A DNA stretch of 58,730 nt, from the sequence record SRR20825019_449. One strand, given 5' to 3'. Of this stretch, positions 24,765-42,679 are shown in pieces. Numbering within the stretch: position 1 is the first letter of the stretch; every line of letters begins with the position of its first letter. Below the pieces are notes generated by a model. It was given only the letters and a program-made list of their open reading frames with translations. It was not told the DNA's origin and ran no database searches. Both the position numbers and the translations under genes were made by a program.

Positions 24765-24791
24765 GACGATTGACCGTCCGGCAAAGTGACG
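24765..24791 (-). promoter_or_regulatory. ECF41 target promoter
   Basis: Minus strand cGTCACt-N16-CGTC versus the known consensus TGTCACA-N16-CGTC. Confidence 0.75.
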
Positions 24792-24995
24792 TGGTGGCGG
24801 TATTTTTCTCAGATTTTATCGACCATCTCCGGAAACTCACCGGCAACGGTTCATGAAATCCTTAGCCCACACCCTGTTAAGAAGGCGTCAAATCGCCCTT
24901 CAATTGCTCCCCCGGAAACCCCAAAATAACGCATCGCCGCAGGGATGCCTGCTACCGCCTCGATAAATAGGCTGGACGTATATCCCTTTGTGATA

Positions 24996-25018
24996 TAGAA
25001 ATGCGACTCATTCTTAAT
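24996..25018 (+). promoter_or_regulatory. Putative Fur-type iron box
   Basis: AGAAATGCGACTCATTCTTA upstream of a siderophore receptor gene. Confidence 0.55.
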
Positions 25019-25074
25019 ATCAATAAATTCCTGTGCCTTCCCCACCTCAGCATAGGGATACAAAGGGTTTAGAA

Positions 25075-27591: not shown

Positions 27592-27618
27592 TGGAGGTAC
27601 ATCGTACGCCACTTCGTT
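27592..27618 (+). promoter_or_regulatory. ECF-type promoter motif, copy 1
   Basis: TGGAGGT-ACATCGTACGCCACTT-CGTT, 27 nt before the CDS at 27646. Confidence 0.75.
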
Positions 27619-27645
27619 CTAAGACCAGGAAAGAAGGACATACAA

Positions 27646-28731
27646 GTGGCACAACGCATCCAATTCAATTTGCTTCAGGGCTTAATGTTTACACTGTTGG
27701 CGACAGGTAGCAGCTTGGCACAGGATCAAGGCATTCAACCACCCAGCCTTGGCCAGCAGGCGAGCTATAGCGAATACTGGGAACAGCAGTTCCTGTTTGA
27801 CGATGGCACATTCGTCACCAGTCAGTTTCTGATTACCAACCTGCCGATAAGCAAACACCACGGCATCCAGATCGGCACGCTTGTTGGCAACAGCACACAA
27901 GCATATGGCGGACGTGTGATCATCAAGAACGGCCGCCCCCGCGATGGCTGGGGCTTTGAACCAACCAAACAGTCACTATCGATCTTCAGCCACGTTTTGG
28001 CCGGCCAACACCCAGGATATCTGATGCGGCTCGCAAACACCGCTGCAGAGCTGGATGTGTTATTTTCTGCAGGAGAGGACGCCATTGAGCTTGTAGCCCC
28101 TAACGGACCATTTGGGTTACCTCAAATTACACTCTACGCACCTCTATCCCAAGCCTTCGCCCGTTGGCGGCCAGGGCCGGAGATTGGTGGCGACGCCGAA
28201 GCCATTGACTGGATCAAGATCGGTCACGGCCATGGCATTGGCGTTCATGTGCGACAAACCCACGAGCTGCACAAGAGCATCCGCCGCTGGACCCGTATGA
28301 CAGGAACCAAAAGCAGCGCGGGGGTTCCTGTCCCCGTCCTGCACCAATTTGTAACACCACGAGGTGAGACAAGCACCGTTCTGTTGCTGCTATCACTCTC
28401 CTCACCGCCACAGCGATTTGACAACGTCACCCTGATAGAAAAAAAGACCGGCACCACCTGGAACCTTCAAGCCAGCATGGAAGGACAACGGATAATTGGC
28501 ACTGTCGTGATTGACAAACCACTCGATCATTTCATCTTAAAGGACCATTTGTCCGGTATCGAGAAGTTGGTAGCGGGCGCATCAGCGGACATCGACCGGA
28601 CACAAACCATTGCCCGCTACACACTCTCGCTCGAGACAGCAACGGGCACCAAACAGCTCACAGGAGACGCAATTTTCGAAGATGTCATGGTCGGAGAAGG
28701 TCGCAGAAAACGCAACAGGCGTCTACGCTAG
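27646..28731 (+). CDS. Secreted hypothetical protein, possibly AttH/CrtC/Svf1 lipocalin-like beta fold
   Basis: Signal peptide (SSLA-Q); SEYWEQQFLFDDG...SQFLITN; beta-strand-rich; basic tail. Confidence 0.7.
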   Translation: MAQRIQFNLLQGLMFTLLATGSSLAQDQGIQPPSLGQQASYSEYWEQQFLFDDGTFVTSQFLITNLPISKHHGIQIGTLVGNSTQAYGGRVIIKNGRPRDGWGFEPTKQSLSIFSHVLAGQHPGYLMRLANTAAELDVLFSAGEDAIELVAPNGPFGLPQITLYAPLSQAFARWRPGPEIGGDAEAIDWIKIGHGHGIGVHVRQTHELHKSIRRWTRMTGTKSSAGVPVPVLHQFVTPRGETSTVLLLLSLSSPPQRFDNVTLIEKKTGTTWNLQASMEGQRIIGTVVIDKPLDHFILKDHLSGIEKLVAGASADIDRTQTIARYTLSLETATGTKQLTGDAIFEDVMVGEGRRKRNRRLR

Positions 28732-29087
28732 ACGCGCTCAAGAATTTGTGGTGTAGCCCAGCCCGACTTTGATTTGATCACCATCACTGCAGTCCTCCGC
28801 AAGCGGACGCCAGCCGACCAAAACCCGCCAGCTTCCACAAACGGACACGGCCATCAGCCTGTAACGACCCACAAGATCGAGCACGGCTTCAGAAAACCCG
28901 TTTTTGGCTTCCACCCGCAACAAACCAAGCGCTGCAACGCTAACCTATTCCTTGCTGACCCCCTACCAACACTGAGCCACGCTTTTCGACAGCGATTTCG
29001 CGGACCCCGCTGACGCAAAGTCGCCAGGTTTGAAGATGGCGTGGCCTAACGTCGCCTTGACGCGACTCAGAAAATAGGCCGCAAGGG

Positions 29088-31607
29088 TCAGAAACGACGT
29101 TCGAGAAACAGGCCAAAAGTGCGCGGTCGCGGCGGAGTGACCTGATGGCCTTCAAGCACGGTAAAACTATTGCCGAAAGAGAAAGTATTAGCGCGGGTAT
29201 CAGACAGGTTCTGGGCAAACAGACCCATCTTCCAAATATCGTTCGAAACCTGCAAACGGACGTTCAGGATGCCAAAATCGCCCATTTGTGGGGATTCCGC
29301 TTCATTGAAGGTCAACGCGGATTTACCGATATAGGCATAATCCGCGCTAAAGGCGCCGTCCCACTTCGGGCCCAGGGTAAACTGATACAACAGCGCGAGG
29401 CTGGCCGTGTTTTCAGAGATCGCAGGCAACCTGTCACCCTTGACAGCACCAAGGAAGGCATTGTCTTCGAGAAGTTCGGAATCGTTCCAAAAGAAAGATC
29501 CTTTCAGCTCAAGCCCGTCAAAGGGCGAAACCGCGAATTCCAGTTCATAGCCAACATTCTTTGCGTCACCGACGTTGGTGACATAGGGAAAACCGCTGTC
29601 GCCAATCTGGTCAGACTGAATATCATACCAGCGCACATAGAAGGCGGACATGTTGACTGACAGCCGACGGTCAAACCAGTAGGATTTTATTCCAGCTTCA
29701 AAGCTTATGAGGTCGTCGGACAAAAATTCGGTGACCCGACCCGCCGGAAACGGCTCGTCTGGGTCGGCCGCCACAAGAGCCTCTAGCGGCGTATCGATAT
29801 TCAATCCACCCACACGGTATCCGACGCCCACCTGAGCATAGGTTTGCACCTGATCGGACCACGTATATTGAACGGCGACCTTTGGGATCACCTTATTGAT
29901 CCTCTTTTTTCCATTCACTGTCTGACGTTCGTCGTCCAGGACAAATTCTGAAACATAGTCTAACTTGAGTTCATTACGGGAAAAGCGGGCGCCTGCTGTA
30001 AAGCTCAGCTTGTCTGACGCTCGAAAAATTGCCTCGCCGAAAACGGCAATGTCCTCTGTTGTTTCCGTTCTGTCTTCCCAAAGCGCAAGGCGTGCGTCTC
30101 TGATATCGAAAGCCAGCGCGAGTGCCGTATCCTTTGTCTGCAACCGACGAAGAAAATAGAACCCTGCCAACCATTCAAAACGATGCCCGGGGGCAGACTG
30201 CAGACGTGTTTCATGGCTAAAGGTGTCTATATCGTCCCGGGTGAAGTAAGCCACTGCGTTTTCTGGCTGTATCACCTCCAGAAATTCCTCTACTCCTGCA
30301 AAGGAGGATAGGTCATCCATGATGAAAGCGCTTGGTGGTAGATTTGCCAATTCGTCAAAAAACAATAAGCCTTCACTGGCGTCCGTTGTTTCCTTGACCG
30401 TGCGGTCAATAAGAGCTGTGGCACTAGTGAAGTGCAAACTGCCTATTCTGCCCTTGACCGTCATATTCAAATGGATGAAACCATCCTTGTAAGGTTCAGG
30501 CAGCAGGTTAGCGCGCTGGTTGCGCCCCAGCCGATCATCAAAATACTGGGAATCATCATAGTGAATGGTCTGGTAATTGATACTGGCCTCCAGATTCCAG
30601 CGCTCGTTGATTTGCCACCTTAGCGCCGGGCGGATGCCGAAGATGTCCAAGTTATTGGTATTCTTTTCTGACAGCCCGACGTTATCGATATAGCCTTCGC
30701 GCTGTTCGCCATAGCCCGTTACCCGCAAACCAAGCCGACCAGGAATTAGCGGGTGGTTGACCATAAAATCGAGCTGCCCGCCCAGGCCGCCGCCCTTTGT
30801 GCCTGAAAGTGTCGTCCGAACGCGGGCAGATGTGTCATCCACATCCGGTTTTTTGGTGATGACGCGGTACAATCCACCCATTGAACCGGCACCATAAAGT
30901 GTGCCCTGTGGCCCTCGCACCAATTCGATCCGATCTACATCAAACAGGCGTAGATCCGGGTTTGTATCATTCAGATTTACCGGCGTTTCGTCGATATAAA
31001 CACCGACCATCGCCTGAGTACGGTCAGCGAATGGCCCATCAGACAAGCCACGAACAAAAATCTTGTTTCGGCCCGGGCCCAAATTGGTGGTGGAGACGCC
31101 TGCCAGGTGCGGCGCCAAAGACTGAAAGTCATGAACGCCCAGATCATCCAACACGAGCCCTGAAAGCCCTGACACACTGACCGGCAGATCAAATCCTGCT
31201 GCCGGCCGTTTGACCGCTGTAACCACTAGATCTTCTATAAAATCGGCTTGTCTGGCAGCGTGCCTCGCCACTGGAGCCGTAGGCTGCTGCTGGCTCTGGG
31301 GTTGCGCAGGAACGAAAAGCTGAACTGTGCTATCATCCAAGAACCGGTAGTGAATACCGCTGCCGTCAAGAATTGTCCTCAGTGATGCGTTTCTTGAGAT
31401 ATGGCCTTGCGTCCCGCCTGACATCACACCGTCTAGCTTGAGCCCCGAAAAGTCTATCGACAGCCCAGCTTCCTCGGCAAATTCGATCAGCGCGGTTACC
31501 AGCGATTGCGGCGGCACGTCAAAGATCGTCACTTGGGCATGCACTGGAGCATTGGCCAAAGCCCCTAGGATCAGTCCGAAAAGAACGGCGCCCTGCCGTG
31601 CAGCCAT
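29088..31607 (-). CDS. TonB-dependent receptor with N-terminal STN signalling domain (transducer)
   Basis: FDVPPQSLVTALIEFAEEAG...LDGSGIHYRF STN domain; RGPQGTLYGAGSMGG; PRTFG...F. Confidence 0.92.
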   Translation of the reverse strand: MAARQGAVLFGLILGALANAPVHAQVTIFDVPPQSLVTALIEFAEEAGLSIDFSGLKLDGVMSGGTQGHISRNASLRTILDGSGIHYRFLDDSTVQLFVPAQPQSQQQPTAPVARHAARQADFIEDLVVTAVKRPAAGFDLPVSVSGLSGLVLDDLGVHDFQSLAPHLAGVSTTNLGPGRNKIFVRGLSDGPFADRTQAMVGVYIDETPVNLNDTNPDLRLFDVDRIELVRGPQGTLYGAGSMGGLYRVITKKPDVDDTSARVRTTLSGTKGGGLGGQLDFMVNHPLIPGRLGLRVTGYGEQREGYIDNVGLSEKNTNNLDIFGIRPALRWQINERWNLEASINYQTIHYDDSQYFDDRLGRNQRANLLPEPYKDGFIHLNMTVKGRIGSLHFTSATALIDRTVKETTDASEGLLFFDELANLPPSAFIMDDLSSFAGVEEFLEVIQPENAVAYFTRDDIDTFSHETRLQSAPGHRFEWLAGFYFLRRLQTKDTALALAFDIRDARLALWEDRTETTEDIAVFGEAIFRASDKLSFTAGARFSRNELKLDYVSEFVLDDERQTVNGKKRINKVIPKVAVQYTWSDQVQTYAQVGVGYRVGGLNIDTPLEALVAADPDEPFPAGRVTEFLSDDLISFEAGIKSYWFDRRLSVNMSAFYVRWYDIQSDQIGDSGFPYVTNVGDAKNVGYELEFAVSPFDGLELKGSFFWNDSELLEDNAFLGAVKGDRLPAISENTASLALLYQFTLGPKWDGAFSADYAYIGKSALTFNEAESPQMGDFGILNVRLQVSNDIWKMGLFAQNLSDTRANTFSFGNSFTVLEGHQVTPPRPRTFGLFLERRF

Positions 31608-31616
31608 ACGCCCCGC

Positions 31617-32636
31617 CTACTGGTTGGCTGTAAAGATAATTTCGAAATCAGATACATCCAGATCCAGATCCATGAACCCGGCCAATTGCCGTGCCATCTG
31701 CTCTGCCGTCGAAACCTGAATTACACCAGAAAATCGAATATTGAGATCCGCTCCCGAAGCAAGTCGGACGGATACAGTTGGGAACAGCGCATCAATTCTG
31801 GAGACAACATCAATCAAAGCAGCATCGCGGAACGTTAGCACGCCCCTGGCCCACGCCCCTACAGTTTCGGCTGGCACATGTGCCATCACCGGTTCCGTCT
31901 CGTTTTCATCGAAAATCGCTACAACACCTGGCTCGATCAACAGGGGTGCCTGCGTTGCACTTGCCTCATGGTCAAGCGGCTCAACAGCCACCAGACCATG
32001 GTTCACCGCCACCCGGTCGAAACCCTCTGCCCGGATCACTTCGAACCGGGTCCCCACCACTTTCACTTGTCGATTGGCAGTTCGCACATAAAACGGCCGC
32101 GTCGGGTTCGGCACCACATCAAAGAAGGCACGACCTGCCTCAAGGGTCACCACACGCATATCGTCAGATATGGCGACCGTCATACCACTACCGCCAAACA
32201 GCGACACCCGCGAACCATCAGCCAGCTCGACGGTGCGTACGCTCGCACCTTCCGCCACATACTGGTGCGGCAAGGATGGTTCATCGTAAAAACCGGTGCC
32301 GGGGAAAATAACACCGAAAAGAAGTGCCATTGCCGCAGCAGCAACTGTCGCCAAACGCGGCCAGCCAAGGTTTGCGAACAGGCCATGCCACTTTGGTTTG
32401 CTCTCGACTGTAAAATCCTGAGCAAAGGTAGTTCGCACCACGCCCTCAAGGGCATCAGCCGAACGCATGGCCAAAGCCACCCGCTCGTACGCATCGGCGT
32501 GCGCCGGGTCTTCAAGCAGCCACTCCATATGGCGCTCGATATCCACGTCGGTCACGTCGCCGGATGCCAAACGGGCATACCAATCAGCGGCTGCATCCAG
32601 CACAGCGGGTGGCGTTATGTCATGTCCACTGCTCAT
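31617..32636 (-). CDS. FecR family anti-sigma factor/membrane sensor
   Basis: AAADWYARL, WLLEDPAHADAY, TM helix, LADGSRV, VVGTRFEV, AWARG. Confidence 0.93.
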   Translation of the reverse strand: MSSGHDITPPAVLDAAADWYARLASGDVTDVDIERHMEWLLEDPAHADAYERVALAMRSADALEGVVRTTFAQDFTVESKPKWHGLFANLGWPRLATVAAAAMALLFGVIFPGTGFYDEPSLPHQYVAEGASVRTVELADGSRVSLFGGSGMTVAISDDMRVVTLEAGRAFFDVVPNPTRPFYVRTANRQVKVVGTRFEVIRAEGFDRVAVNHGLVAVEPLDHEASATQAPLLIEPGVVAIFDENETEPVMAHVPAETVGAWARGVLTFRDAALIDVVSRIDALFPTVSVRLASGADLNIRFSGVIQVSTAEQMARQLAGFMDLDLDVSDFEIIFTANQ

Positions 32637-32662
32637 GGTTTCATTCTCTCATACATCACTAT

Positions 32663-32689
32663 AACGGAATGAAGGACGGAAGCCCTCCA
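32663..32689 (-). promoter_or_regulatory. ECF-type promoter motif, copy 2
   Basis: Minus strand TGGAGGG-CTTCCGTCCTTCATTC-CGTT, 26 nt before the fecR-like gene. Confidence 0.75.
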
Positions 32690-32718
32690 ACCGACATTCA
32701 TCACTGTGTTGCGCGGGT

Positions 32719-33291
32719 TCATTGTCGCTGGCTCCTCGAAATGGCCAGCGCCTTAATGGCCCGGATCATATGTTTCTCGATCGTACTCTTGGGAATACCG
32801 GTCCGCTCGGAGATTTCAGCGTGGCTCAACTCCTCGAACCGGTGCAGCAAAAATATCTGCCTAGTCTTCTTCGGCAACTCTTCCAGAGCCTGCATCGCCG
32901 CGGCCAGCTCCTGCTTGGCCACCAGCGCACGCGAAGGGTCTACAGACACCGACGCACTCATATCATCATCCGCGCCAGCCGTATTAGCCTTGCCCCAAGC
33001 GTCCTCTCGCGCTGCGCGGGCGTTGCGCTCGCGCACCTTATCGATCACGAGGTTAGCAATGATACGAGCCAGAAGGGCCTCTGGTGAAGCAGTATTAGCC
33101 ACATCATACTTATTCTGGAACCTGATGAAGGCCTCTTGAACAATTTCCTCGGCTTCGGCATCATCCTTCAGGCGTGCTGCCGCAAAACGAATCAACGGAC
33201 CCCGCTGCAGGCGAAAAAGTTCCTCCAGTGACCTGCCCCGTACCGTGCTCGCCTGCGGTTTGTCTGTTTTTAATTTCGCCCAATCAAACAT
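32719..33291 (-). CDS. FecI-like ECF sigma factor
   Basis: EAEEIVQEAF, IIANLVID, LPKKTRQIFLLHRFEELSHAEI...STIEKHM. Confidence 0.93.
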   Translation of the reverse strand: MFDWAKLKTDKPQASTVRGRSLEELFRLQRGPLIRFAAARLKDDAEAEEIVQEAFIRFQNKYDVANTASPEALLARIIANLVIDKVRERNARAAREDAWGKANTAGADDDMSASVSVDPSRALVAKQELAAAMQALEELPKKTRQIFLLHRFEELSHAEISERTGIPKSTIEKHMIRAIKALAISRSQRQ

Positions 33292-33363
33292 GCCGGAACC
33301 TTAGCCGATTGCCCCCTGCCAGAAAAGCACCTGAATGCCATTACAAAAATATTTCAGAAAGAT

Positions 33364-33390
33364 TGGAGGTACATAGCCGGCAGGTCCGTT
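33364..33390 (+). promoter_or_regulatory. ECF-type promoter motif, copy 3
   Basis: TGGAGGT-ACATAGCCGGCAGGTC-CGTT, 38 nt before ino1. Confidence 0.75.
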
Positions 33391-33428
33391 TCCCTGACGA
33401 AGCAAATAAAAAGGCCTGGAGTATCCTT

Positions 33429-34574
33429 ATGACAATGCCGAAAAATACCATCAATGTCGCCATCGTGGGCTTAGGGAACTGTGCGAGCTCCCTGGTACAG
33501 GGCGTCTATTATTATGGCACTGAGAAAAACGCAGATGCCTCAGGGTTAATGCATGAAAGCCTAGGCGGCTACCTGCCGTCCGACATCCGCATAACTGCAG
33601 CGTTTGACATTGACCAGCGCAAGGTTGGTAAGGACGTATCCAAAGCCATTTTTGAGGCTCCCAATTGCACAGCCGTCTTCCAGGCGGACATTCCCCATCA
33701 GGGCGTCAAGGTGAAAATGGGCCGTGTTCTGGATGGCTATTCAGATCATATGTCAACTTACCCCGACAAGCGCCGATTCATGCCCCTTGACGCGCCCGAG
33801 CCAACCAAACACGATATCGTCCGCGAATTAAAAGAAGCAAAGGTGGATGTTCTGATGAACTATCTGCCAGTGGGCAGCCAGAAGGCGACCGAATTCTATG
33901 CTGAATGCGCGCTCGAGGCCGGTGTCGCCTTCGTCAACAACATCCCTGTTTTTATCGCTAGCGATCCGGTGTGGGCGGAACGGTTTGAAAAGGCCGGCCT
34001 GCCGATCATCGGCGACGACATCAAGGCCCAGTTGGGCGCCACCATCGTGCACCGTGTCCTGACCGACCTGTTCGCCAAGCGCGGCGTGGCCATGGACCGC
34101 ACGTACCAGTTGAACACGGGCGGTAATACAGACTTCCTAAACATGAAAAACCAGGAACGACTGGAATCCAAAAAGACTTCGAAAACCGAGGCAGTTCAGT
34201 CGGTCGCGGCGCACCGGATCGAAGACGAAAATATCCATGTGGGCCCCAGCGACTATGTGGCCTGGCAGAATGACAACAAGGTTTGTTTCCTGCGCATGGA
34301 AGGCCGTCTGTTCGGCGATGTGCCGATGAACCTTGAACTCAGGCTGTCTGTTGAAGATTCGCCTAACTCGGCTGGTGTCGCCATTGATACCGTCCGCTGT
34401 GCCAAGCTGGCACTCGACCGCGGTAGGGCCGGTGTGATTGAAGGGCCTTCGGCCTTCTTCTGCAAGCACCCGCCCATACAGCACACCGACGATGTGGCGC
34501 GCACCATGACAGAGGCCTTCATCGCTGGGTCTCATATTGAACCGGCGACCAAAAGAATTGCGGCGGCAGAATAA
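33429..34574 (+). CDS. ino1: myo-inositol-1-phosphate synthase (MIPS)
   Basis: GLGNCASSLVQG, YLPVGS, GDDIKAQLGAT, YQLNTGGNTDFLNM, DSPNSAG. Confidence 0.96.
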   Translation: MTMPKNTINVAIVGLGNCASSLVQGVYYYGTEKNADASGLMHESLGGYLPSDIRITAAFDIDQRKVGKDVSKAIFEAPNCTAVFQADIPHQGVKVKMGRVLDGYSDHMSTYPDKRRFMPLDAPEPTKHDIVRELKEAKVDVLMNYLPVGSQKATEFYAECALEAGVAFVNNIPVFIASDPVWAERFEKAGLPIIGDDIKAQLGATIVHRVLTDLFAKRGVAMDRTYQLNTGGNTDFLNMKNQERLESKKTSKTEAVQSVAAHRIEDENIHVGPSDYVAWQNDNKVCFLRMEGRLFGDVPMNLELRLSVEDSPNSAGVAIDTVRCAKLALDRGRAGVIEGPSAFFCKHPPIQHTDDVARTMTEAFIAGSHIEPATKRIAAAE

Positions 34575-34586
34575 CCGTCCCCTGGC

Positions 34587-34740
34587 TGAAGGTATTCGCC
34601 TTACCGCAATGCCCCGGCCGCTCCACCCCTCCCATTAGGCGGTCAGGGCCCTATCCCCTTGTTTGACGGTATTCGCCTCACGCCTTGCCGCAACACCCCG
34701 GCCGCTCCAATCTTCCCATTGAGCGGTCGGGACCTACCCC
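34587..34740 (+). repeat. Two imperfect tandem repeats of about 75 bp, each with a hairpin
   Basis: Units 34587-34658 and 34664-34740 share TGA.GGTATTCGCCT..CCGCAA..CCCCGGCCGCTCCA...TCCCATT..GCGGTC.GG..CTA.CCC. Confidence 0.8.
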
Positions 34741-34758
34741 AAGAAGGAAAAAAGCGCC

Positions 34759-35661
34759 ATGGTCCAAACACCGATAGACGCATCATCCCGGGGCTCTGTA
34801 CTGGAACCGCATCAGTATGGGCGACCAAGTGCGATCGAAGATGCATCCAATCGTTATCTGATCCACCCCCTGTCAGACCTTGTGGTGACCGTTGCCCACA
34901 GGATGGGGCTTTCTCCCAACACAGTCTCATTCATGGGGCTCGCCTGCGGTTTTTTGGCGGCCTTCCTATATTATGACCTGCCTCAGCAGGTCCCAGTTAT
35001 CGGTGGTTTTGTTGCCATGGTTGCCTGGCACGTCCTTGACGGGGCCGACGGACGCCTGGCGCGTCTCACGCGCCGGTCCAGTGCTTTTGGCCGCGTCATC
35101 GACGGCATCTGTGATCATCTTGTGTTTGGCGCAGTCTATATCGCGCTGGCCTTGCACTTGATGGAAACAGGCTATTCTGCACATGTCTGGTGGCTTGTCG
35201 TCGGCGCAGGCCTGTCACACGCGGTACAGGCCGCCGGCTATGAAGAACGACGTCAGAAATACCAGCGCAGGCTGAAGGGGTTAACACGCGCAACGACAGA
35301 ACAAGACATGTTGGTGGTGAACGGCAAAAAATCCACGCTAGCAGCCCTCTATGATGCAGCACAAAAGCTGGTAAGCGGCAACCGCTCAGTGCTTGACGAC
35401 AGGCTCCGCAACCTCCAGACGTCACCGAACGGAAAAAGGTATGCGGCTCACATCATAAGCCAAACTGTACCCATGGTACGCGCTTGGGGCGTCTTGAACG
35501 CCAACAACCGTACCTTCCTGATCTTCGCTTTTTCCTTGTTCGGGCAGCCGGCTTTCTATTTCGCCTTCGAGTTGGTGATCTTCAATTTGGTCTTGGTGAT
35601 CCTGATGATCGCCGAATGGCGTCAGGAAAAGGCGCTGGCGGCTCAATCGCTGCCAAACTGA
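34759..35661 (+). CDS. CDP-alcohol phosphotransferase (DIPPS/PI-synthase-like)
   Basis: SPNTVS and signature LDGADGRLARLTRRSSAFGRVIDGICD. Confidence 0.92.
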   Translation: MVQTPIDASSRGSVLEPHQYGRPSAIEDASNRYLIHPLSDLVVTVAHRMGLSPNTVSFMGLACGFLAAFLYYDLPQQVPVIGGFVAMVAWHVLDGADGRLARLTRRSSAFGRVIDGICDHLVFGAVYIALALHLMETGYSAHVWWLVVGAGLSHAVQAAGYEERRQKYQRRLKGLTRATTEQDMLVVNGKKSTLAALYDAAQKLVSGNRSVLDDRLRNLQTSPNGKRYAAHIISQTVPMVRAWGVLNANNRTFLIFAFSLFGQPAFYFAFELVIFNLVLVILMIAEWRQEKALAAQSLPN

Positions 35662-35662
35662 G

Positions 35663-37126
35663 ATGGGCGCAATCGACGACATAAAAGACATCCTGCGCGG
35701 CGCACTGGCATCTCTTGGCGGCTTTGGTGGTCGCATGCTGGCCCGGCTGGTGCTGATGCTGGTTGCGGGCCACCTCTATGGCGCGGCATCACTGGGGCTT
35801 TTAGGCCAAGTGGCGGCGCTCACAGAAATCATCGCGGCGGCGGCAACCATGGGGCTCAAACGTACTTTACTCGATCTCCTCAGCGGCAAGGAAGCCGAGG
35901 AACAGGCACTCAAAATCATCAAAGAGGCGTTGATGGCAGCCCTGCTGGCGGCCTTTGTGGGCGCCTTCTTGTTGGCTGCCTTGTGGCCCCTCCTCTTTCC
36001 TGCCCCTTCCATGCCCTTGCTGCTGCTGGGCGCCATACCCTCTATCGTCATCGCGGAGGTTGGCGGCGCCGCGATCCGGTTCAAGCGCATCATTCGCTGG
36101 GAAGTGATTGCACGCTGCGTGTTTGAGCCCTGGGGCTTCCTGCTTGGCGCGTTGACCTTTTATTATACTGGCCTGACGGAGACCGGCCTAGTCGCGGCAT
36201 ACGCTTTCTCCTGCGTGATGGCGGCATGTGGCATACTGATCGGCCTTCACAAGGTATTTGGTGCCCGCGCCCTCATTGGGGCTACATTCAACCCGACTGC
36301 CCTTTACCGCATACCGCTCTATAGCCTTCCTGCTGGGATCACAGACATGGGCGTCATGATGTTTCGCCGTCTTGATATCCTTATCCTGTCAACCGTCGCA
36401 GGTCACGACACCACCGGCATCTATTATATGGCGCAACAGATTGTCACCATTCCACATAAGATCCATCAGTTGTTTGATCCCATGATAACCCCTGTGATTG
36501 CCCGGCTACATCATGGGCTAAAACGTGACGTGATTGCCGCTAAGCTAGCGGGCTTCTGCCGCTGGACCTTCACACTGCAGCTGGCGCTCACGGTGCCCAT
36601 CGCCATATTCGGTGACCACCTAATGGCTCTGTTCGGCGATCAGTTCGCCTCAGGTGCAATCGTTCTGGCCTTCCTTTTGTTTGCTGAATTGATGGACGGC
36701 AGTTTTGCACTGACGGAAACCACCCTTCTGTTCGCCCGGCCAGGCCTGCCGCCCAGATTGGTGTCCACCGCGCTTGCAATCGAGATACTGACTGTTGCCG
36801 GACTGGCGTCGCTTTGGGGAGAAACGGGGGCCGCCATTGCCTTCGCCATTGCCATGTCGAGCCTGGCCCTGGCCCGACTGTTTTTTATCAAACAGCAGCT
36901 CGGCATCAGGATCATAGGGGTCCCATTTATGCCACCGATTATCATTGCATTCCTTGTTGGGGGGGGGCTGTTGGCTTTCAGGCTCTATGTCCCTGCCTTT
37001 GCTGCCGACGTTTTTGGCCTTCTTCTTCCTGCCGCCATTTGCTGTTTTCTGCTGTTGGTCAGACTGAAAGGGTTGACGCCCTTGGACAGGGAAGTGGTCA
37101 AGCAATTGCGCTCTGGTTCAAGCTGA
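35663..37126 (+). CDS. Wzx/MOP-family flippase
   Basis: About 14 TM helices; RRLDILILS...GIYYMAQQI, LFGDQF, GETGAAIA. Confidence 0.8.
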   Translation: MGAIDDIKDILRGALASLGGFGGRMLARLVLMLVAGHLYGAASLGLLGQVAALTEIIAAAATMGLKRTLLDLLSGKEAEEQALKIIKEALMAALLAAFVGAFLLAALWPLLFPAPSMPLLLLGAIPSIVIAEVGGAAIRFKRIIRWEVIARCVFEPWGFLLGALTFYYTGLTETGLVAAYAFSCVMAACGILIGLHKVFGARALIGATFNPTALYRIPLYSLPAGITDMGVMMFRRLDILILSTVAGHDTTGIYYMAQQIVTIPHKIHQLFDPMITPVIARLHHGLKRDVIAAKLAGFCRWTFTLQLALTVPIAIFGDHLMALFGDQFASGAIVLAFLLFAELMDGSFALTETTLLFARPGLPPRLVSTALAIEILTVAGLASLWGETGAAIAFAIAMSSLALARLFFIKQQLGIRIIGVPFMPPIIIAFLVGGGLLAFRLYVPAFAADVFGLLLPAAICCFLLLVRLKGLTPLDREVVKQLRSGSS

Positions 37127-37835
37127 TCCAGTCTGACGCCATCCGGTGCATCGCTGGGCTATCAACATCAATCCAGAAAGCGTCTCCAATATCTACACCA
37201 AGAGCACGGCCGTTCTGCGCCAACATGGCCATGCCACCGGATATTGAGAAATCTCCCGTTTCACGGCCTGTCTCACTGATGGCATCAAAAAGCGCCGGGC
37301 CTGCACAGAAAACCCCTGTATCGAAGGCTGTGTAAACGGAAATCTCTTTTCCAATCTCCCTAATGAAAGGGCCCTTCATGCAGACCTTGGTCACATCGTG
37401 CAAGTCGACAAAAGAATTATTCAGGCGCATATCCACCGCAAGCGCAACATCAGTTTTCATAAGCGGGTGGGCCAAAAGCCTATGATACAGCTCAGCCGAC
37501 ACGATATGATCACACATGGCAAGACAGAACCGCTTGCCAGCAAGTGCTTCCCGCGCGGCCAGAACCGACAGCCCATTCGACCGCCGGTAATCGGGGTTAT
37601 GCACCAAGTCGATCTCCCACCCCCGTTGCTGGCGCAAAACCGAAAGGCTTGCTGCAAGGATGTCCGCCTTATACCCCCCGACGACGGTGGCCCGCTTCAA
37701 GCCAGCCTCAAAGGCGGCCTCCAGGGCGTATTCGATCAACGGCTTTCCATGTACCTCCACGAGAGGTTTAAGGTTGCCCTTTGCCCTCAGGCGCGTCCCC
37801 ATGCCAGCGGCCACTATCAGAAGATCCTCAACCAT
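37098..37835 (-). CDS. NTP transferase, IPCT-like (CTP:inositol-1-phosphate cytidylyltransferase)
   Basis: VAAGMGTRL...KPL, NGLSV, MCDH, DVTKV, DTGVF, WIDVD as in the IPCT/LicC family. Confidence 0.85.
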   Translation of the reverse strand: MVEDLLIVAAGMGTRLRAKGNLKPLVEVHGKPLIEYALEAAFEAGLKRATVVGGYKADILAASLSVLRQQRGWEIDLVHNPDYRRSNGLSVLAAREALAGKRFCLAMCDHIVSAELYHRLLAHPLMKTDVALAVDMRLNNSFVDLHDVTKVCMKGPFIREIGKEISVYTAFDTGVFCAGPALFDAISETGRETGDFSISGGMAMLAQNGRALGVDIGDAFWIDVDSPAMHRMASDWISLNQSAIA

Positions 37836-40236
37836 AAACTGTCTTTCTTTGTTTGGCGCTTTGTAAAAGTTGCAACAACACCGGCAGCAAAACCCAGGTC
37901 ATCAATAGACACATGCCGAAGCCGATCAACGCCAGATAACCCATCGACCGAAGGCCGCCCATGGACGCCGTAATCAGCCCGCCAAACCCCAGAAGCGTCG
38001 TGAAGGTCGTCACAATGGCCGCCCGACCGGTTGTCGCCATGACCGTTCGAACTTCGTCGCGTCCTTCGGTGAAGCGTTCCACAATATGGATAGCATTGTC
38101 GACGGAGATACCAATCAAGGATGGCAGGATCACCATATTGATGATCGACAGCTTCAGCCCCACAAGCGCCATAATGCCAAGGGTAAGGATTAGTCCAAAG
38201 GCCGTGGGCGCCAGAATAACACATGTCGCCTTCAGTGAGCGGCAAAAACCGGCCACAGCCGCCAAGGTCACCAGCCCAACCAGCAAAACGGCTTTGATCG
38301 CGTCCGCCTTCATCAGCGCCAGCATTTCCACAAAGATAAACCCCTCTGACGCCGGGTGATAGGTCTTTCCATCAACTGTAAAGCTGGCGACATCGTCATA
38401 AAACTGGCGGGCAAGATCAGCATCATTCATTGTCACCGAGTTGTAGATATAAACCAGATAGCCCGGTTTTCTCTCGTTGCCCAAAAAGACACGGCGCATG
38501 CCCTGTGGCAGGTCCTTCACATCCAGCATGCCAATCTGCAGATATTTGGCCTTGTCCTGTAACGATATCGGCAGTGGTCCACTTTCCTCGATTTTCGACC
38601 ACATGCGGTTGATCACTTCAAGTCGTGCGGCCTGGCCTTCTCTGTCTGGCACGAAATTGCGGACACTGGTGATTTTCGCCACGGTCGGTGTCCGGGTATC
38701 CTTGCGATTGTAGGCTTCGAAATAGTCTTCAATGGCCTTGACCTCTTCAAGCGTATCAACCACCAGAACGGCCCGGTCATGACCGCCTTTGAAGATGCGT
38801 TTCGACCGCTCAGTAGCCCATTGGTGCTCTGCCGACTGTGCCGCCTGGATATTTTTGAAGTTTCGCTCGAATGACAGGTGCGGCACCAGGAAGCCCGCTG
38901 CCACAAGCGGCGGAAGAAACAACCCAAGTGCCCGGCGGGGCCCTAGCGCAAACCGCCCGCCCATAACACCACTGCCAGCGACGCCGCTTGGGCGCCATGT
39001 CATAAAAGGGGCCATAACGGACAGCAAGGCCGGAAACACGGTATACATTGACAGGTAAATCAGCAGCATGCCGCTGCCCGCGATGAAGCCAAACTCTCGG
39101 AACGCGCGGAATTCTGTCAGCAGCAGGGCCAAAAAACCTGCCGCTGTTGTGATACCCGCGATCAATGACGCCCGCCCCGTATGGGCCAAAAGGACTGCGA
39201 TTGCTTCCCTGTGGCTGTCACCTAGCCCCCGCGCTTCCGCATAGCGGCTGAAATTGTGAATTCCGAAATCAATGCCCAACCCAAACAGGATCAGCGCCAA
39301 AAAAATGGTGATCAGGTTCAGCCCCCCAATAACCACTGCCGTTAATCCAATCGTCCATATAATGCCAAACGCTAGTGGGATAATGATCAACGGCAGCGCC
39401 ATCAGGCGACGATAATGAAGCAACAGAAGAAGCATAATCAGCGACACAGAACTGCCAAGGCCGATCTTCACGTCATGCATCACGGCGTCAAATTGCGCTA
39501 CTTTGTTGCGAACCCTGCCCGCAATCCCGACTTTAAGCCCACTGCCTGATGCATTCAATTCAAGGGCCTGAATGATGGCAGCAATATCGCCAATCATAGT
39601 CTTGGCACCAGCCAACCCTTGATATCCAGCTTTGGGCCATATTACGAGCGCCTGGCTGCGTCCATCGTCTGAGGCAAATCGCCGCTCGGTCTCCATCGGA
39701 GCTAGAAGTTCGCTGGCAGGAACCCCTTTCTTCTCACGGCTTGAAACTCGGATATCCTGCCCCACCAATGAGATAGTGAGAGGTATGCCGGTCGACTTCT
39801 CGATATTGCGAGTGACATTAGCCAGAATCTCTTCTTCCAGTCTGGCTTCAACCTGCTCCAGTTCAGCGACATCAAGCTGCAACAGCTTGTGGCGCTCAAG
39901 GACGGAAATATCTTCAAAATACTGAGCGCTGTCGGTCCATGGCAGGCGACGGGTAATTGCCTCCAGAATGAACAATCCCTCCTCAGCCCGACGCGGATCA
40001 TCGCTTTCGACAATCACTTGAATAGCAGCAAAGCTGCCAATTTTTTCCATGGCGTCATTCAGTGTGATCACGCTTGGGGCATCTTCCGGCATCAGGGCCT
40101 CAAGCTTGGTCGAAACCTTGAGCGTACCCGCTGCTGACATGGCAAGCACAGATGCCATGAGCGCCAGCGCCAAAACCAACCAACGCCCTGCCACAACCAG
40201 CCCGGCTGCTTTCATACTCCAGTGTCCCACGCTCAC
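37828..40236 (-). CDS. MMPL/HpnN-like RND lipid exporter
   Basis: Two repeats with GLGIDFGIH and GISVDNAIH, TT..GF motifs; 1+5 TM halves. Confidence 0.9.
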   Translation of the reverse strand: MSVGHWSMKAAGLVVAGRWLVLALALMASVLAMSAAGTLKVSTKLEALMPEDAPSVITLNDAMEKIGSFAAIQVIVESDDPRRAEEGLFILEAITRRLPWTDSAQYFEDISVLERHKLLQLDVAELEQVEARLEEEILANVTRNIEKSTGIPLTISLVGQDIRVSSREKKGVPASELLAPMETERRFASDDGRSQALVIWPKAGYQGLAGAKTMIGDIAAIIQALELNASGSGLKVGIAGRVRNKVAQFDAVMHDVKIGLGSSVSLIMLLLLLHYRRLMALPLIIIPLAFGIIWTIGLTAVVIGGLNLITIFLALILFGLGIDFGIHNFSRYAEARGLGDSHREAIAVLLAHTGRASLIAGITTAAGFLALLLTEFRAFREFGFIAGSGMLLIYLSMYTVFPALLSVMAPFMTWRPSGVAGSGVMGGRFALGPRRALGLFLPPLVAAGFLVPHLSFERNFKNIQAAQSAEHQWATERSKRIFKGGHDRAVLVVDTLEEVKAIEDYFEAYNRKDTRTPTVAKITSVRNFVPDREGQAARLEVINRMWSKIEESGPLPISLQDKAKYLQIGMLDVKDLPQGMRRVFLGNERKPGYLVYIYNSVTMNDADLARQFYDDVASFTVDGKTYHPASEGFIFVEMLALMKADAIKAVLLVGLVTLAAVAGFCRSLKATCVILAPTAFGLILTLGIMALVGLKLSIINMVILPSLIGISVDNAIHIVERFTEGRDEVRTVMATTGRAAIVTTFTTLLGFGGLITASMGGLRSMGYLALIGFGMCLLMTWVLLPVLLQLLQSAKQRKTVYG

Positions 40237-40265
40237 TCCACATTTTCACCCGCTTACAGGGTAAT

Positions 40266-40292
40266 AACGGAGCGCCACCTAAGCCACCTCCA
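40266..40292 (-). promoter_or_regulatory. ECF-type promoter motif, copy 4
   Basis: Minus strand TGGAGGT-GGCTTAGGTGGCGCTC-CGTT, 29 nt before the MMPL gene. Confidence 0.75.
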
Positions 40293-40551: not shown

Positions 40552-41214
40552 ATGGCACGTTTATTATTGGTAGAGGATGACGTTCAGCTTGGGGAATCCC
40601 TTAAAGAAGGGCTTGAGATGGATGTCTATCACGTTGATTGGTTGCGAAATGGCGCGGATGCGCTTTTGGCGCTGGAAACCAATGATTTTGACATCGCCGT
40701 GTTGGATCTGGGCCTGCCGGGGATGGACGGGGTAACGTTACTACAGGCCGCCCGCAAGAATGGTGACAGCACCCCCATTCTTATTCTCACTGCGCGAGAC
40801 ACTGTTGCAGATAAAATAAGAGGGCTGGATTCAGGGGCGGACGATTATCTAGTAAAACCCTTTGATATAGATGAATTATCCGCACGGCTTCGCTCACTCT
40901 TGCGGCGCTCGTCAGGGCGGGCAAGTCCTGCACTTGAAGTGGGCGCAATATCATTGGACCCCGCAACGGGCGATATTACTATAGATGCCATTCCTACTAT
41001 TTTGTCCGGCCGAGAACGGGCCTTGTTGCAAATTCTGATGGAGAACGCCGGACGTTTTGTTTCCAAAAGTAGATTGGAGAACAGCCTTTATGGCTGGGAT
41101 TCTGAGGTCGAAAGTAATACCGTTGAGGTATATATCTCCAAATTGCGAAAGAAAGTTGGACGCGCGAGTATTACCACAATGCGCGGCGTCGGCTACAGAA
41201 TGAATAAAGCGTAA
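40552..41214 (+). CDS. OmpR-family response regulator (QseB/PmrA-like)
   Basis: LLVEDD, LDLGLP, GADDYLVKPF, SNTVEVYISKLRKK. Confidence 0.93.
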   Translation: MARLLLVEDDVQLGESLKEGLEMDVYHVDWLRNGADALLALETNDFDIAVLDLGLPGMDGVTLLQAARKNGDSTPILILTARDTVADKIRGLDSGADDYLVKPFDIDELSARLRSLLRRSSGRASPALEVGAISLDPATGDITIDAIPTILSGRERALLQILMENAGRFVSKSRLENSLYGWDSEVESNTVEVYISKLRKKVGRASITTMRGVGYRMNKA

Positions 41215-41215
41215 C

Positions 41216-42679
41216 ATGGCCGCCTCTCTCAAACGGAAGCTTACAATGCATCTATCCCGCTGGTTGCTCGGGATCTGGATCGGCGCTTCCCTTTTGGCAT
41301 TTTTTGCCGCCAAATCCGAGGTGACAGAGGTTTTTGATATGCGCATGCGTGATTATGCCACGCTGCTTACAGAGATTGCTTATCGGCGCATCCATGACCT
41401 TGAAGAACGCGGCGTTGATGTGATCAACACCCCACCCAACACAGCCTTTGAATATAATAGTACGCTAGCCTTCAAGGTATGGCGCAATGGGAAACTGGCA
41501 GCAAGCAGCACCGGCGCGCCTAATTTTCCAACGCCAAATCAGCCAGGCTTCTATTACGAAAGAATAACTTCTTACGAAAACTCAGATCATGAAAAAGAGA
41601 TCGCTGAAGGGCGTGCACCAGAGCTTGAGACTGACGACTGGATTTTTTATGCGGCCCACGACCCTTCATACGATCTTTGGGTTGTGGTGGCGGAAATCGA
41701 CGATGTTCGGGAGTTCCTGATTGGTAAGATGATATTGCAGATGGTTTGGCCTGTATTGGTGATATTTCCCATTCTGTTTGCCGCCATATATTTTACCATA
41801 CAAAAGCAATTGAGGCCTCTTGGGAAAGTCTCGCGGCAAATAGGCAGACGCAATCCATCAGAGCTCTCTTCTATCAGCAGCGATGGGGCGCCAGCCGAAT
41901 TGATACCCATCATTGCATCGCTTAACAGCTTGCTTGCCCGCTTATCTGCAGCTTTGGAAGCCGAACGCCGGTTCACAGCGAATGCTTCCCATGAGCTTCG
42001 GACCCCGCTAGCTGCTCTAATAACACAGGTGCAGGTCGCGGAGCGGCAAAGCGAAGACAAAGAAAGTCGACACGTTCTTTCGAAGATCAGGGACAGAGCA
42101 AACAGGCTTACAAATTTGGTTGATCAGCTAATGACCCTCGCGCGCCTTGATCCTGACCAGTCCTCATTAAATCCGGAACATTTCTGCGTTCAGCAAACAA
42201 GCGAAGCCATTTTGGCTGATTTGGCGAACGCGGCTCTGGAAAAGAACATTGAACTCAACTTAGATGTGGCGCCAAACAGCACCGTGTATGGAATTGAGGC
42301 TCACTATTCTGTAATGGTGCGTAATCTTGTTGAAAATGCAATTCGGTACTCCCCCGAAAACACGGAAGTATGTTTGAAGTTCTCCCAGGAAGGCTCTACC
42401 TGCGAAGTAATGGTAACGGACCAGGGGAAGGGTATCCCAGATAAGGAAAAAAAACGGGTATTTGAATATTTTACACGCGGCGAAAATGAAAGCATTCTGG
42501 GCAGTGGCATCGGCCTGTCAATCGTCCAACGGGTTGCCTCATTTATGAAGGCCACAGTCACAATTACGGATAATATTCCGTCAGGAACCATTGTTACAGT
42601 CTGGTGGGATACCAATGTTGCGTCAGTCGCCGCTGACTCAATTAGGAAAACGAGGCAGCATCAATCGAAAGAACGTTAA
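41216..42679 (+). CDS. Sensor histidine kinase (QseC/PmrB-like)
   Basis: ERRFTANASHELRTPL, NLVENAIRY, GSGIGLSIV. Confidence 0.92.
   Translation: MAASLKRKLTMHLSRWLLGIWIGASLLAFFAAKSEVTEVFDMRMRDYATLLTEIAYRRIHDLEERGVDVINTPPNTAFEYNSTLAFKVWRNGKLAASSTGAPNFPTPNQPGFYYERITSYENSDHEKEIAEGRAPELETDDWIFYAAHDPSYDLWVVVAEIDDVREFLIGKMILQMVWPVLVIFPILFAAIYFTIQKQLRPLGKVSRQIGRRNPSELSSISSDGAPAELIPIIASLNSLLARLSAALEAERRFTANASHELRTPLAALITQVQVAERQSEDKESRHVLSKIRDRANRLTNLVDQLMTLARLDPDQSSLNPEHFCVQQTSEAILADLANAALEKNIELNLDVAPNSTVYGIEAHYSVMVRNLVENAIRYSPENTEVCLKFSQEGSTCEVMVTDQGKGIPDKEKKRVFEYFTRGENESILGSGIGLSIVQRVASFMKATVTITDNIPSGTIVTVWWDTNVASVAADSIRKTRQHQSKER

Follow-up and report, generated by a model that had tools for sequence, protein, structure and literature searches.

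We analysed a locus at positions 27592-40292 of the 58,730-nucleotide (nt) DNA stretch SRR20825019_449, which in its full length is referred to as the window, and on the whole we favour the reading that this locus is a self-contained regulon in which cell-surface signalling governs an inositol-phosphate lipid of the envelope, probably inositol-phosphoceramide. In this reading, which is drawn from comparison of sequences, genes predicted to make and export the lipid would share an ECF-type promoter motif with an adjacent trio of genes for a sigma factor, a FecR-like regulator and a TonB-dependent transducer. The names of related proteins and loci suggest that the window lies in or near the Kordiimonadales, marine Alphaproteobacteria. 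Open reading frames (ORFs) were called in the window and the encoded proteins were scanned for families with Pfam and NCBIfam, the Pfam scan covering 16 window proteins. The nearest complete genome (G001, 4.18 Mb), with 97% of the window's sampled words in common, was used as a stand-in for the window host. A profile of relatives of the CDP-alcohol phosphotransferase of the locus (CDPOH) was searched against a species-representative genome collection and gave 292 confirmed loci, of which the best 80 were examined and numbered (L numbers below). Neighbours within 10 kb of CDPOH were counted in these best 80 of 292 loci by tblastn with the window proteins; several loci without a neighbour match were short or cut contigs.

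All nine genes that an earlier note on this DNA had listed were recovered between 27592 and 40292 by ORF calling, Pfam and NCBIfam. The minus strand carries the ECF sigma factor gene (32719-33291; Sigma70_r2, r4_2 and ECF domains), the gene for the FecR-like anti-sigma factor or sigma regulator (31617-32636; DUF4880 and FecR domains) and the gene for the TonB-dependent transducer with a putative N-terminal signalling extension (TBDR2, 29088-31607; Plug and barrel). Divergent from this trio, on the plus strand, are the genes for MIPS (33429-34574; 381 amino acids, PF01658), the divergent CDP-alcohol phosphotransferase CDPOH (34759-35661; PF01066) and a putative MOP-superfamily (Wzx/PST-like) transporter that we propose to be a lipid flippase (MOP, 35663-37126; most members of its family match Polysacc_synt). 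Convergent with these and back on the minus strand are a putative HpnN-like MMPL/RND lipid exporter (MMPL, 37828-40236, starting with GTG at 40236; PF03176) and an IPCT-like cytidylyltransferase (NTP, 37098-37835; NCBIfam and PDB matches). The remaining gene encodes a secreted, beta-rich protein with a signal peptide (hyp361, 27646-28731, plus strand, GTG start).

The gene grouping appears to be more than chance, since a MIPS homologue lay within 10 kb of CDPOH in 66 of the 80 loci and an NTP homologue in 71. The co-occurrence of the inositol genes in other genomes, for which the earlier note had looked to a neighbourhood conservation search, was thereby borne out. A hyp361 homologue was found within the same distance in 21 loci, and MOP and MMPL accompany the cluster in a marine group of loci, L001-L038. 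The ECF and FecR pair was present in 16/80 loci and stood divergent from MIPS, as in the window, in 13 Kordiimonadales-type loci. Three loci (L025, L026 and L037) have a more distant trio, with sigma factors 36-43% and receptors 39-42% identical, in other positions and orientations, and about 20 Robiginitomaculum-type loci carry the cluster without the trio. Loci with CDPOH were found in Alphaproteobacteria and some Gammaproteobacteria.

The family matches of the three enzymes are consistent with a route through CDP-inositol. The MIPS ORF opens at 33174 and the real ATG was placed at 33429 behind a GGAG ribosome-binding site; the protein scored 122.2 bits against PF01658 (cut-off 27) and 447.5 bits against the mycothiol-type equivalog TIGR03450, below the cut-off of 638. 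The best NCBIfam match of NTP was to the IPCT half of the archaeal IPCT/DIPPS model NF041135 (4.1e-26), and its top three PDB matches were all IPCTs (2xme at 4.7e-12, 4mnd at 2.8e-11 and 4jd0 at 5.8e-11), aligned over nearly the full length (residues 4-231), with the phosphocholine enzyme LicC next at 7.9e-7. With IPCTs as the three closest solved relatives, the description of NTP as an IPCT-like cytidylyltransferase in the earlier note holds. We propose that NTP is a CTP:inositol-1-phosphate cytidylyltransferase, the specificity for inositol being assigned because of the tight linkage with MIPS.

CDPOH scored 51.3 bits against PF01066 (cut-off 22) and carries the motif D94-G-x-D97-G-x2-A-R ... 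G111-x3-D115-x3-D119, in which D94, D97, G98, A101, R102, G111, D115 and D119 were invariant in 15 sequences. A C-terminal extension of roughly 150 residues, containing the motifs YEERRQ and NANNRT, is conserved as well, and the protein is far from all solved enzymes (AF2299 at 1.8e-7, CEPT1 at 5e-6, PgsA1 at 6e-6 and DIPPS at 1.4e-3). The closest fold to the CDPOH model (pLDDT 83.5) was AF2299 (TM 0.53); Foldseek with this model gave no match at E <= 0.001, the best being AF2299 at 1.2e-3, and did not indicate an acceptor. Scores against the IPCT-DIPPS equivalog NF041135 were 34.5 bits for CDPOH and 91.9 bits for NTP against a cut-off of 580, and CDPOH also fell below the PIP synthase equivalogs NF045883 (48 vs 170 bits) and NF052561, which is of the BT_1523 type (24.4 vs 350 bits). 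The CDPOH and NTP genes are separate and lie on opposite strands. We propose that CDPOH is a CDP-inositol:lipid (ceramide) phosphoinositol transferase.

The acceptor is not readable from the CDPOH sequence and it is the genome context that points to ceramide. With the G001 Spt, CerR-like protein and acyl-AMP ligase as queries against the 80 loci, 20 loci had at least one of these sphingolipid genes no more than 10 kb from CDPOH, and in 17 Spt was among the genes found. Typically in these 20 loci a MIPS-NTP-CDPOH operon stands between the ligase and Spt genes. Two loci, L050 and L058, have a cluster that holds a CDPOH homologue, an Spt-like gene, a CerR-like reductase, a hyp361 homologue and MMPL, together with a second, fused CDP-alcohol transferase and a fatty acid desaturase. 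Co-occurrence was assessed in 401 evenly sampled Alphaproteobacteria genomes, with CDPOH counted at E <= 1e-30 and Spt above its curated cut-off. The CDPOH family was found in six genomes from five families, Spt in 52 and MIPS in 36, and all six CDPOH-positive genomes had both Spt and MIPS. The naive hypergeometric probabilities of about 4e-6 for Spt and about 4e-7 for MIPS overstate the case because kin are not independent. The distance between CDPOH and Spt was 3-3.5 kb in three genomes (G078, G198 and G207), 12 kb in a fourth and 1-2 Mb in the other two, one of them G001. The Spt of G001 scored 608-610 bits against NF047599 (cut-off 500) and is encoded alongside a CerR-like reductase and a fatty acyl-AMP ligase. 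In two gammaproteobacterial genomes in which CDPOH does not adjoin MIPS, MIPS was encoded elsewhere. Taken with the export genes described below, these comparisons make it probable that the product is an envelope inositol-phosphate lipid, and they tip the balance slightly towards inositol-phosphoceramide in particular. The ceramide acceptor is a refinement that the earlier note had not considered.

Several observations weigh against ceramide as the acceptor in the window lineage. None of the marine loci L001-L038, to which the window lineage belongs, had Spt, a CerR-like gene or the ligase within 10 kb of CDPOH, and in G001 CDPOH and Spt are 2 Mb apart. The acceptor is assigned to this lineage because of 36-41% identity to Spt-linked relatives, the co-occurrence across genomes and the L050/L058 cluster. 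The head group is open to a similar objection as an IPCT-like enzyme need not use inositol phosphate: in the part of the Caulobacter work available, CpgD has an IPCT as its best structural match and yet makes CDP-glycerate (PMC12275187).

The strongest alternative keeps the same regulon and gives it a glycerolipid product. CDPOH would use diacylglycerol or an ether glycerol to make phosphatidylinositol in a Kennedy-like reaction, and an inositol sphingolipid would need a further enzyme. This chemistry is what Heaver et al. propose for Bacteroides vulgatus, where, as far as the available part of their paper describes it, an NTP transferase and a CDP-alcohol transferase adjoin MIPS (PMC9246714). 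The lack of nearby Spt in L001-L038 fits a glycerolipid, the diacylglycerol-using CEPT1/CHPT1 are among the nearest solved relatives of CDPOH (5e-6 to 3e-5), and the clusters of the Robiginitomaculum type include genes of the PLD-like and GDPD kinds, whose chemistry is typically that of glycerophospholipid head groups. Against it, Spt was present in 6/6 CDPOH-positive genomes but in only 52/401 overall, and CDPOH sits inside clusters of spt, cerR-like and acyl-AMP-ligase genes in the 20 loci described above. In addition, no HAD domain was found by Pfam in the 16 window proteins and no PAP2- or AUR1-type transferase was seen, which leaves the locus with no gene to transfer the head group onward to ceramide. 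We consider a glycerolipid product unlikely, though it is the alternative to inositol-phosphoceramide that deserves most weight.

The clusters vary in their lipid-related genes. The IPCT-like gene of Robiginitomaculum-type loci includes a fused glycerophosphodiester phosphodiesterase (GDPD) domain and encodes proteins of 514-533 amino acids (L018:14836-16380, L034:16308-17909 and L015:19095-20690); a separate GDPD gene lies upstream of MIPS in L025 (7449-8474), and L034 and L015 have PLD-like genes between CDPOH and MOP. A second, longer CDP-alcohol phosphotransferase of 435-481 amino acids, with an N-terminal domain of about 230 residues that had no Pfam match, recurs in the clusters (L008:15590-17035, L050:3714-5021, L066:8647-10005 and L064:6279-7604); the window locus has no copy of it. 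In Acidocella aromatica a glycosyltransferase gene (L044:6690-7691) with the Gly_transf_sug (DXD) domain, which we take to be the domain of yeast mannosyl-IPC synthases, is directly upstream of MIPS-NTP-CDPOH inside a sphingolipid cluster and hints at a glycosylated inositol sphingolipid in Acetobacteraceae. MIPS and Spt occurred together in 13 of the 401 Alphaproteobacteria against about 4.7 expected if independent, and the CDPOH family was present in only six of these 13, so inositol sphingolipids may also be made by other routes, or by transferases that have diverged further.

The export side of the locus is made up of MOP, MMPL and hyp361. The window MOP protein matched Polysacc_synt at E 7.6e-4 and 19.4 bits, below the cut-off of 28.2, and among 23 members of its family 18 matched Polysacc_synt at E <= 0.01 (best 3.9e-17), eight Polysacc_synt_3 and three MatE; the family profile had no match at E <= 1 to solved structures. 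MMPL scored 106.4 bits against PF03176 (cut-off 20.5) and remained below the HpnN equivalog TIGR03480 (280 vs 751.85 bits) and NF045600 (179.5 vs 1400 bits). Its best solved relative was HpnN (6wu0, 1.2e-24); MmpL4 and MmpL5, which export siderophores, were also among the solved relatives (about 1e-13 to 5e-13). For hyp361 no Pfam or NCBIfam sequence match was found. Beyond the signal peptide it has the conserved polar motifs YxEYWEQ, KNGR and NTAAE and a conserved Arg/Lys-rich C-terminal tail, and its AF2 model (pLDDT 88.9, pTM 0.85) has an AttH/CrtC-type double beta-barrel. Foldseek matched this model to AttH NE1406 (2ich), Fsa2, CghA, kievitone hydratase and a 25-phosphosteroid lyase (E 2e-10 to 1e-6, TM 0.48-0.60), and a protein language-model look-up gave the same AttH/CrtC group, including Svf1. 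The solved proteins that share this fold, fungal Diels-Alderases among them, all hold hydrophobic substrates, and on the strength of the model we propose that hyp361 is a periplasmic lipid carrier or a lipid-modifying enzyme. A hyp361 homologue stands directly between CDPOH and MOP in six Emcibacter-type loci (L059, L063, L066, L067, L075 and L079) and between Spt and MMPL in L050 and L058. The placement between CDPOH and MOP indicates that hyp361 is a component of the pathway rather than of the receptor module. With CDPOH travelling with MOP, the HpnN-like MMPL and this AttH/CrtC-fold protein, and with sphingolipid clusters in other lineages, the earlier suggestion that the product is a lipid and not a solute was strengthened. 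Genes for LptF/LptG-type permeases were seen beside the Spt cluster in G001 (L099:4350-6694) and directly after CDPOH in Acidocella (L044:10874-12073), and an Lpt-like sphingolipid route may operate where MOP and MMPL are absent.

The genes of the control trio are adjacent and on the same strand, which is the arrangement of FecIRA-type systems. The sigma factor scored 77.8 bits against TIGR02937 (cut-off 42.9), and the FecR-like protein scored 73 bits against NF007296, below the cut-off of 385. As only 9 nt separate fecR from the TBDR2 gene, the two are taken to be one operon. Residues 21-255 of TBDR2 align to residues 40-274 of FpvA, which comprise the FpvA signalling domain and plug, and the Plug of TBDR2 starts at residue 140. 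Reciprocal searches were made in the genomes that hold L025, L026 and L037 (G002, G003 and G004), which have three distinct gene arrangements. Each had a single strong TBDR2 orthologue, 42-45% identical, and in each it adjoins the inositol cluster; scores were 626, 606 and 333+301 bits with matches starting at residues 21-25, and the next-best match in these genomes reached at most 188 bits. Two complete Robiginitomaculum genomes with the cluster and without the trio (G005 and G006) yielded no orthologue; the best match scored 112.7 bits in the first, with 37% identity over residues 122-310, and 206.5 bits in the second, with 29% identity.

A promoter motif ties the trio to the inositol genes. 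When the intergenic region between the sigma gene and MIPS was aligned for 15 loci, only two blocks were conserved, the MIPS ribosome-binding site and TGGAGG-N16-(T)CCGTT, which is oriented on the MIPS strand and has the form of an ECF promoter. From the consensus tGGAGG-N16-YCGTT the window was searched with the pattern GGAGG-N{15,17}-YCGT, which matched six times against 2.06 expected from shuffles (2/100 shuffles reached six). Five of the six matches had a spacer of exactly 16, the correct orientation and a position 27-40 nt ahead of an operon start. These were at 27593-27617 on the plus strand, 28 nt before the hyp361 GTG at 27646; at 32664-32688 on the minus strand, between the sigma gene and fecR and 27 nt before the fecR ATG of fecR-TBDR2; at 33365-33389 on the plus strand, 39 nt before MIPS-CDPOH-MOP; at 40267-40291 on the minus strand, 30 nt before the GTG of MMPL-NTP at 40236; and at 55876-55900 on the plus strand, 37 nt before an ATG at 55938, which is 15 kb outside the locus. 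The locus ends of 27592 and 40292 match the outermost of the first four motifs. The sixth match, with N=15 and antisense within the upstream receptor gene TBDR1, was taken as chance. In G001 a stricter pattern gave 19 matches and its reversed control 17, and genome-wide enrichment was therefore rejected; the signal is in position and not in number. In G001 a T preceding GGAGG and the start of a long ORF 26-38 nt downstream were seen together only at the five matches of the locus; the remaining 14 lay within long reading frames or lacked a downstream gene.

The motif also tracked the presence of the trio when, in the 80 loci and the window, the 250 nt ahead of each gene were searched for the strict form. 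It was found upstream of MIPS in 13/17 trio loci compared to 0/46 trio-less loci, upstream of hyp361 in 9/13 compared to 0/8, and upstream of MMPL in 7/14 compared to 1/20 others, the lone exception (L004) being on a contig that ends before the expected trio site. It was upstream of fecR in 11/17 trio loci. Genes internal to operons served as controls and had no motif (CDPOH 0/79, MOP 0/47, TBDR2 0/18), and NTP was preceded by it only in L013 and L032, where NTP heads its own transcription unit. Several of the misses had variant boxes (GGCGG, GGATG or AGAGG) or a motif before an extra gene at the head of the operon, as with the second, fused CDP-alcohol transferase before MMPL in L008 and an EEP-family gene in L019. 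The extra genes fronted by the motif in relatives were all envelope- or lipid-related and included MipA-family outer-membrane proteins (L003, L005, L007, L012 and L014), secreted endonuclease/exonuclease/phosphatase (EEP)-family proteins of the sphingomyelinase family with DUF2141 (L019 and L026) and a TolC-like OEP protein (L003). On the grounds of receptor orthology, the shared motif and its tracking of the trio, it is very probable that the adjacent trio controls the inositol genes. Such control had been put forward in the earlier note and gains support from the motif copies before hyp361, fecR-TBDR2, MIPS-CDPOH-MOP and MMPL-NTP, which follow the trio, and from the receptor orthologue beside inositol genes.

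The fifth motif lies before TBDR3 (55938-58316, plus strand), an outer-membrane protein of 792 amino acids in which Pfam identified CarboxypepD_reg, Plug and a TonB-type barrel. TBDR3 is 78% identical to the product of L013:13326-15701, which adjoins NTP behind its own copy of the motif, and among the related loci it is common only to L013 and L032. Five other Kordiimonadales genomes gave no match to it at E <= 1e-60; for this reason it was rejected as a general member of the regulon and is regarded as a lineage-specific addition. The predicted regulon thus has five promoters within 28 kb.

Against control by the trio stand several results. No motif was found upstream of the sigma gene itself in any of 17 loci, which implies that this gene has a separate, different promoter. 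The strict motif was absent from expected sites at MMPL in 7/14, fecR in 6/17 and hyp361 in 4/13 loci; the trios of L025 and L037 have only a degenerate form (AGAGG/AGCGG ... YCGTC), and the search ahead of MIPS in L025 found no motif. Another ECF sigma factor might in principle read the motif. The Pfam STN match of TBDR2 was below threshold (E 0.042, 14.1 vs 28.4 bits), so that of the STN-receptor in the earlier note the receptor stands, with its Plug, barrel and FpvA-like N-terminus, and the STN domain is putative. Finally, no inner-membrane uptake system was evident at the locus.

The placement of the motif and of the receptor orthologue leaves little room for the trio being an ordinary iron or nutrient uptake sensor that is a neighbour by chance, with a motif that belongs to another sigma factor or reflects common ancestry. 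FecIRA-type systems usually control iron-carrier uptake, as the available part of one account has it (PMC9249621), the Kordiimonadales loci are kin, making conserved synteny alone weak evidence, and the roughly 20 Robiginitomaculum-type loci do without the trio. An uptake sensor is hard to reconcile with a motif that is confined to operon fronts, follows the trio (13/17 vs 0/46 at MIPS) and fronts fecR-TBDR2 as well as the biosynthetic operons, and with the lack of any other promoter-placed copy in G001. Nor does it fit a receptor orthologue that in three distant, rearranged genomes occurs only beside the inositol clusters and was not found in the two complete genomes without the trio, and Pfam showed no siderophore-type ABC or periplasmic binding genes among the 16 window proteins. 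We regard this explanation as very improbable.

Equally improbable in our view is self-sensing of the pyoverdine type, in which the exported inositol-phosphate compound or a fragment released by a phosphodiesterase, possibly as a metal chelate, would be the ligand of TBDR2, so that the system would be auto-induced and its product would act outside the cell. The FpvA-FpvR-PvdS layout combines biosynthesis and exporter genes with receptor, anti-sigma and sigma genes. The locus resembles this layout and has its receptor gene within the regulon, the solved relatives of MMPL include the siderophore exporters MmpL4 and MmpL5 (about 1e-13), and secreted, sphingomyelinase-like EEP-type and DUF2141 genes lie behind the motif in L019 and L026. 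Against this, there is no sign of metal-binding chemistry, MMPL matches HpnN far better than it does MmpL4 and MmpL5 (1.2e-24 vs about 5e-13), many relatives carry the cluster without the receptor, and an inner-membrane importer is not present. A DIP compatible solute was rejected as the product since the transferase gene is accompanied by those for lipid exporters and sphingolipid synthesis and its product fails the DIPPS equivalog, and such a solute is also unlikely in a marine bacterium with a lipid export module.

In the preferred reading of a lipid regulon, an extracellular ligand would bind TBDR2, the signal would pass to FecR and the ECF sigma factor would be released; that an external ligand triggers synthesis is inferred solely from how FecIRA-type systems work. 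The sigma factor would then act at the five tGGAGG-N16-YCGTT promoters, those of fecR-TBDR2 (giving positive feedback), MIPS-CDPOH-MOP, MMPL-NTP, hyp361 and TBDR3. Based on family membership and gene linkage, MIPS would convert glucose-6-phosphate to inositol phosphate, NTP would convert inositol phosphate to CDP-inositol, and CDPOH would transfer phosphoinositol to a membrane lipid, most likely ceramide, giving inositol-phosphoceramide. MOP would flip the product across the inner membrane, the HpnN-like MMPL would extract it from the membrane, and hyp361 would carry or modify it in the periplasm on its way to the outer membrane.

Genes flanking the locus were left out of this proposal. Upstream, window positions 23377-27246 hold a SigJ-like sigma factor gene, a CMD-family gene and a second TonB receptor gene, TBDR1 (25033-27246). 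TBDR1 was rejected as a part of the system with a counterpart in 0/80 loci, and the SigJ-like sigma and CMD genes were not conserved with the locus in the 80 relatives. Downstream, the genes for an OmpR-type response regulator and a histidine kinase (40552-42679) were rejected as they had only scattered weak matches among the 80 loci. A further gene met in G001 (L100:7284-8120, on C1 at about 745.3 kb) matched the aminoglycoside 3-N-acetyltransferase model NF033082 (340.7 bits, cut-off 270) and is unrelated to the locus.

The proposed chemistry has relatives in several known pathways. CDP-inositol made by an IPCT is used by a CDP-alcohol phosphotransferase in the IPCT/DIPPS system of hyperthermophiles and by BEPIS of Rhodothermus marinus, for which the CDP-inositol route to an inositol glycerolipid or ether lipid has reportedly been shown. 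The window genes share this likeness and differ from IPCT/DIPPS in being unfused and on opposite strands and in the C-terminal extension of CDPOH, which scores below the equivalog cut-off; the nearest solved relative of CDPOH by sequence and fold is AF2299, an archaeal CDP-alcohol phosphotransferase. AUR1 and BT_1522 have the same proposed product, inositol-phosphoceramide, but use phosphatidylinositol as the head-group donor and are not of the same enzyme family as CDPOH. Insect CPES is a CDP-alcohol phosphotransferase with ceramide as acceptor and CDP-ethanolamine as donor, and as such is a precedent for the acceptor proposed here, likened to CDPOH by description only.

Closer in gene content is the putative alternative cluster of Bacteroides vulgatus and Prevotella, in which, in the available part of its description, MIPS adjoins an NTP-transferase-domain protein and a CDP-alcohol phosphatidyltransferase, with a route proposed to run through CDP-inositol without a PIP intermediate and to end in an inositol sphingolipid; it is a biochemically unproven proposal (PMC9246714). 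Because a CDP-inositol route has thus already been proposed for Bacteroidota, the chemistry of the window pathway is not new in kind. The two clusters are alike in MIPS, the NTP transferase, the CDP-alcohol transferase and the CDP-inositol route, as far as that description extends, and were compared by description and not by sequence. They differ in that the B. vulgatus cluster has a HAD hydrolase, the domain missing from the 16 window proteins, whereas the window transferase itself is proposed to act on ceramide. The window adds MOP, MMPL, the AttH-like secreted protein and the ECF/FecR/TonB module, and its type is found in Alphaproteobacteria and some Gammaproteobacteria while the other is found in Bacteroidota. 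In Caulobacter, the available parts of two reports describe CpgA-D, which make the anionic sphingolipid ceramide diphosphoglycerate (PMC12275187, PMC9393093). That pathway is likewise alphaproteobacterial, leads to an anionic sphingolipid and uses a CDP-activated donor from an IPCT-like enzyme encoded with sphingolipid genes. There, however, the donor is CDP-glycerate and the first step a ceramide kinase, while the linkage with MIPS in the window points to CDP-inositol, with a CDP-alcohol phosphotransferase as the transferase. The available parts of the Caulobacter reports mention no control by cell-surface signalling.

The control and export modules can be compared in the same way. The trio is like FecI-FecR-FecA and FpvA-FpvR-PvdS/FpvI in its ECF sigma factor, FecR-type regulator and TonB transducer with an FpvA-like N-terminal extension, and in a receptor gene behind a sigma-type promoter. 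Unlike in those systems, the predicted regulon consists of lipid biosynthesis and export genes and not of uptake genes, with no ABC importer identified and, although no search was aimed at it, no Fur box either, and fecR shares the ECF-type promoter of the receptor while the promoter of the sigma gene is separate. Among exporters, the window MMPL is closest to HpnN (hopanoid) and BstA (sterol), below the equivalog cut-offs of both. BstA is encoded with BstB and BstC, and the window resembles it in that an MMPL gene is encoded with a secreted protein of lipid-binding fold; here the partner has an AttH/CrtC-like fold and the cargo would be an inositol-phosphate lipid.

Every part of the locus comes from a known family, and what is new is the combination and its regulatory output. 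Beyond the gene list, the analysis has added a defined promoter motif and regulon, a regulon member outside the locus and a probable sphingolipid acceptor. Signalling through ECF sigma factor, FecR and TonB receptor is known almost entirely as control of iron-carrier uptake, and the synthesis and export of a lipid head group as its output would be new for cell-surface signalling; the motif makes this prediction directly testable. A literature search, in a library short of most subscription journals, found no report of cell-surface signalling controlling the synthesis of sphingolipids, inositol lipids or other lipids, and no description of the CDPOH family or of a CDP-inositol-dependent inositol-phosphoceramide synthase in Proteobacteria. 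Inositol sphingolipid synthesis in Proteobacteria is an open question, and an inositol sphingolipid has been seen in Novosphingobium acidiphilum without either known gene cluster, according to the available part of that report (PMC9246714). The CDPOH family is a concrete candidate for the missing enzyme because of its strict co-occurrence with MIPS and Spt and its frequent placement inside sphingolipid clusters, and the module of MOP, MMPL and the AttH-like protein is a candidate answer to how sphingolipids transit to the outer membrane. We put forward more tentatively, as something that falls somewhat short of an even chance, that FecIR-type signalling has here been converted from nutrient uptake to a switch for outer-membrane lipid remodelling, together with a new family of CDP-inositol:ceramide inositol-phosphoceramide synthases and a new export route of MOP, MMPL and an AttH-like carrier. 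If this is true, some strains add a CarboxypepD_reg TonB-type outer-membrane protein to the regulon, and the CDPOH family would account for the inositol sphingolipids of those Proteobacteria in which genes of the Bacteroides type are missing.

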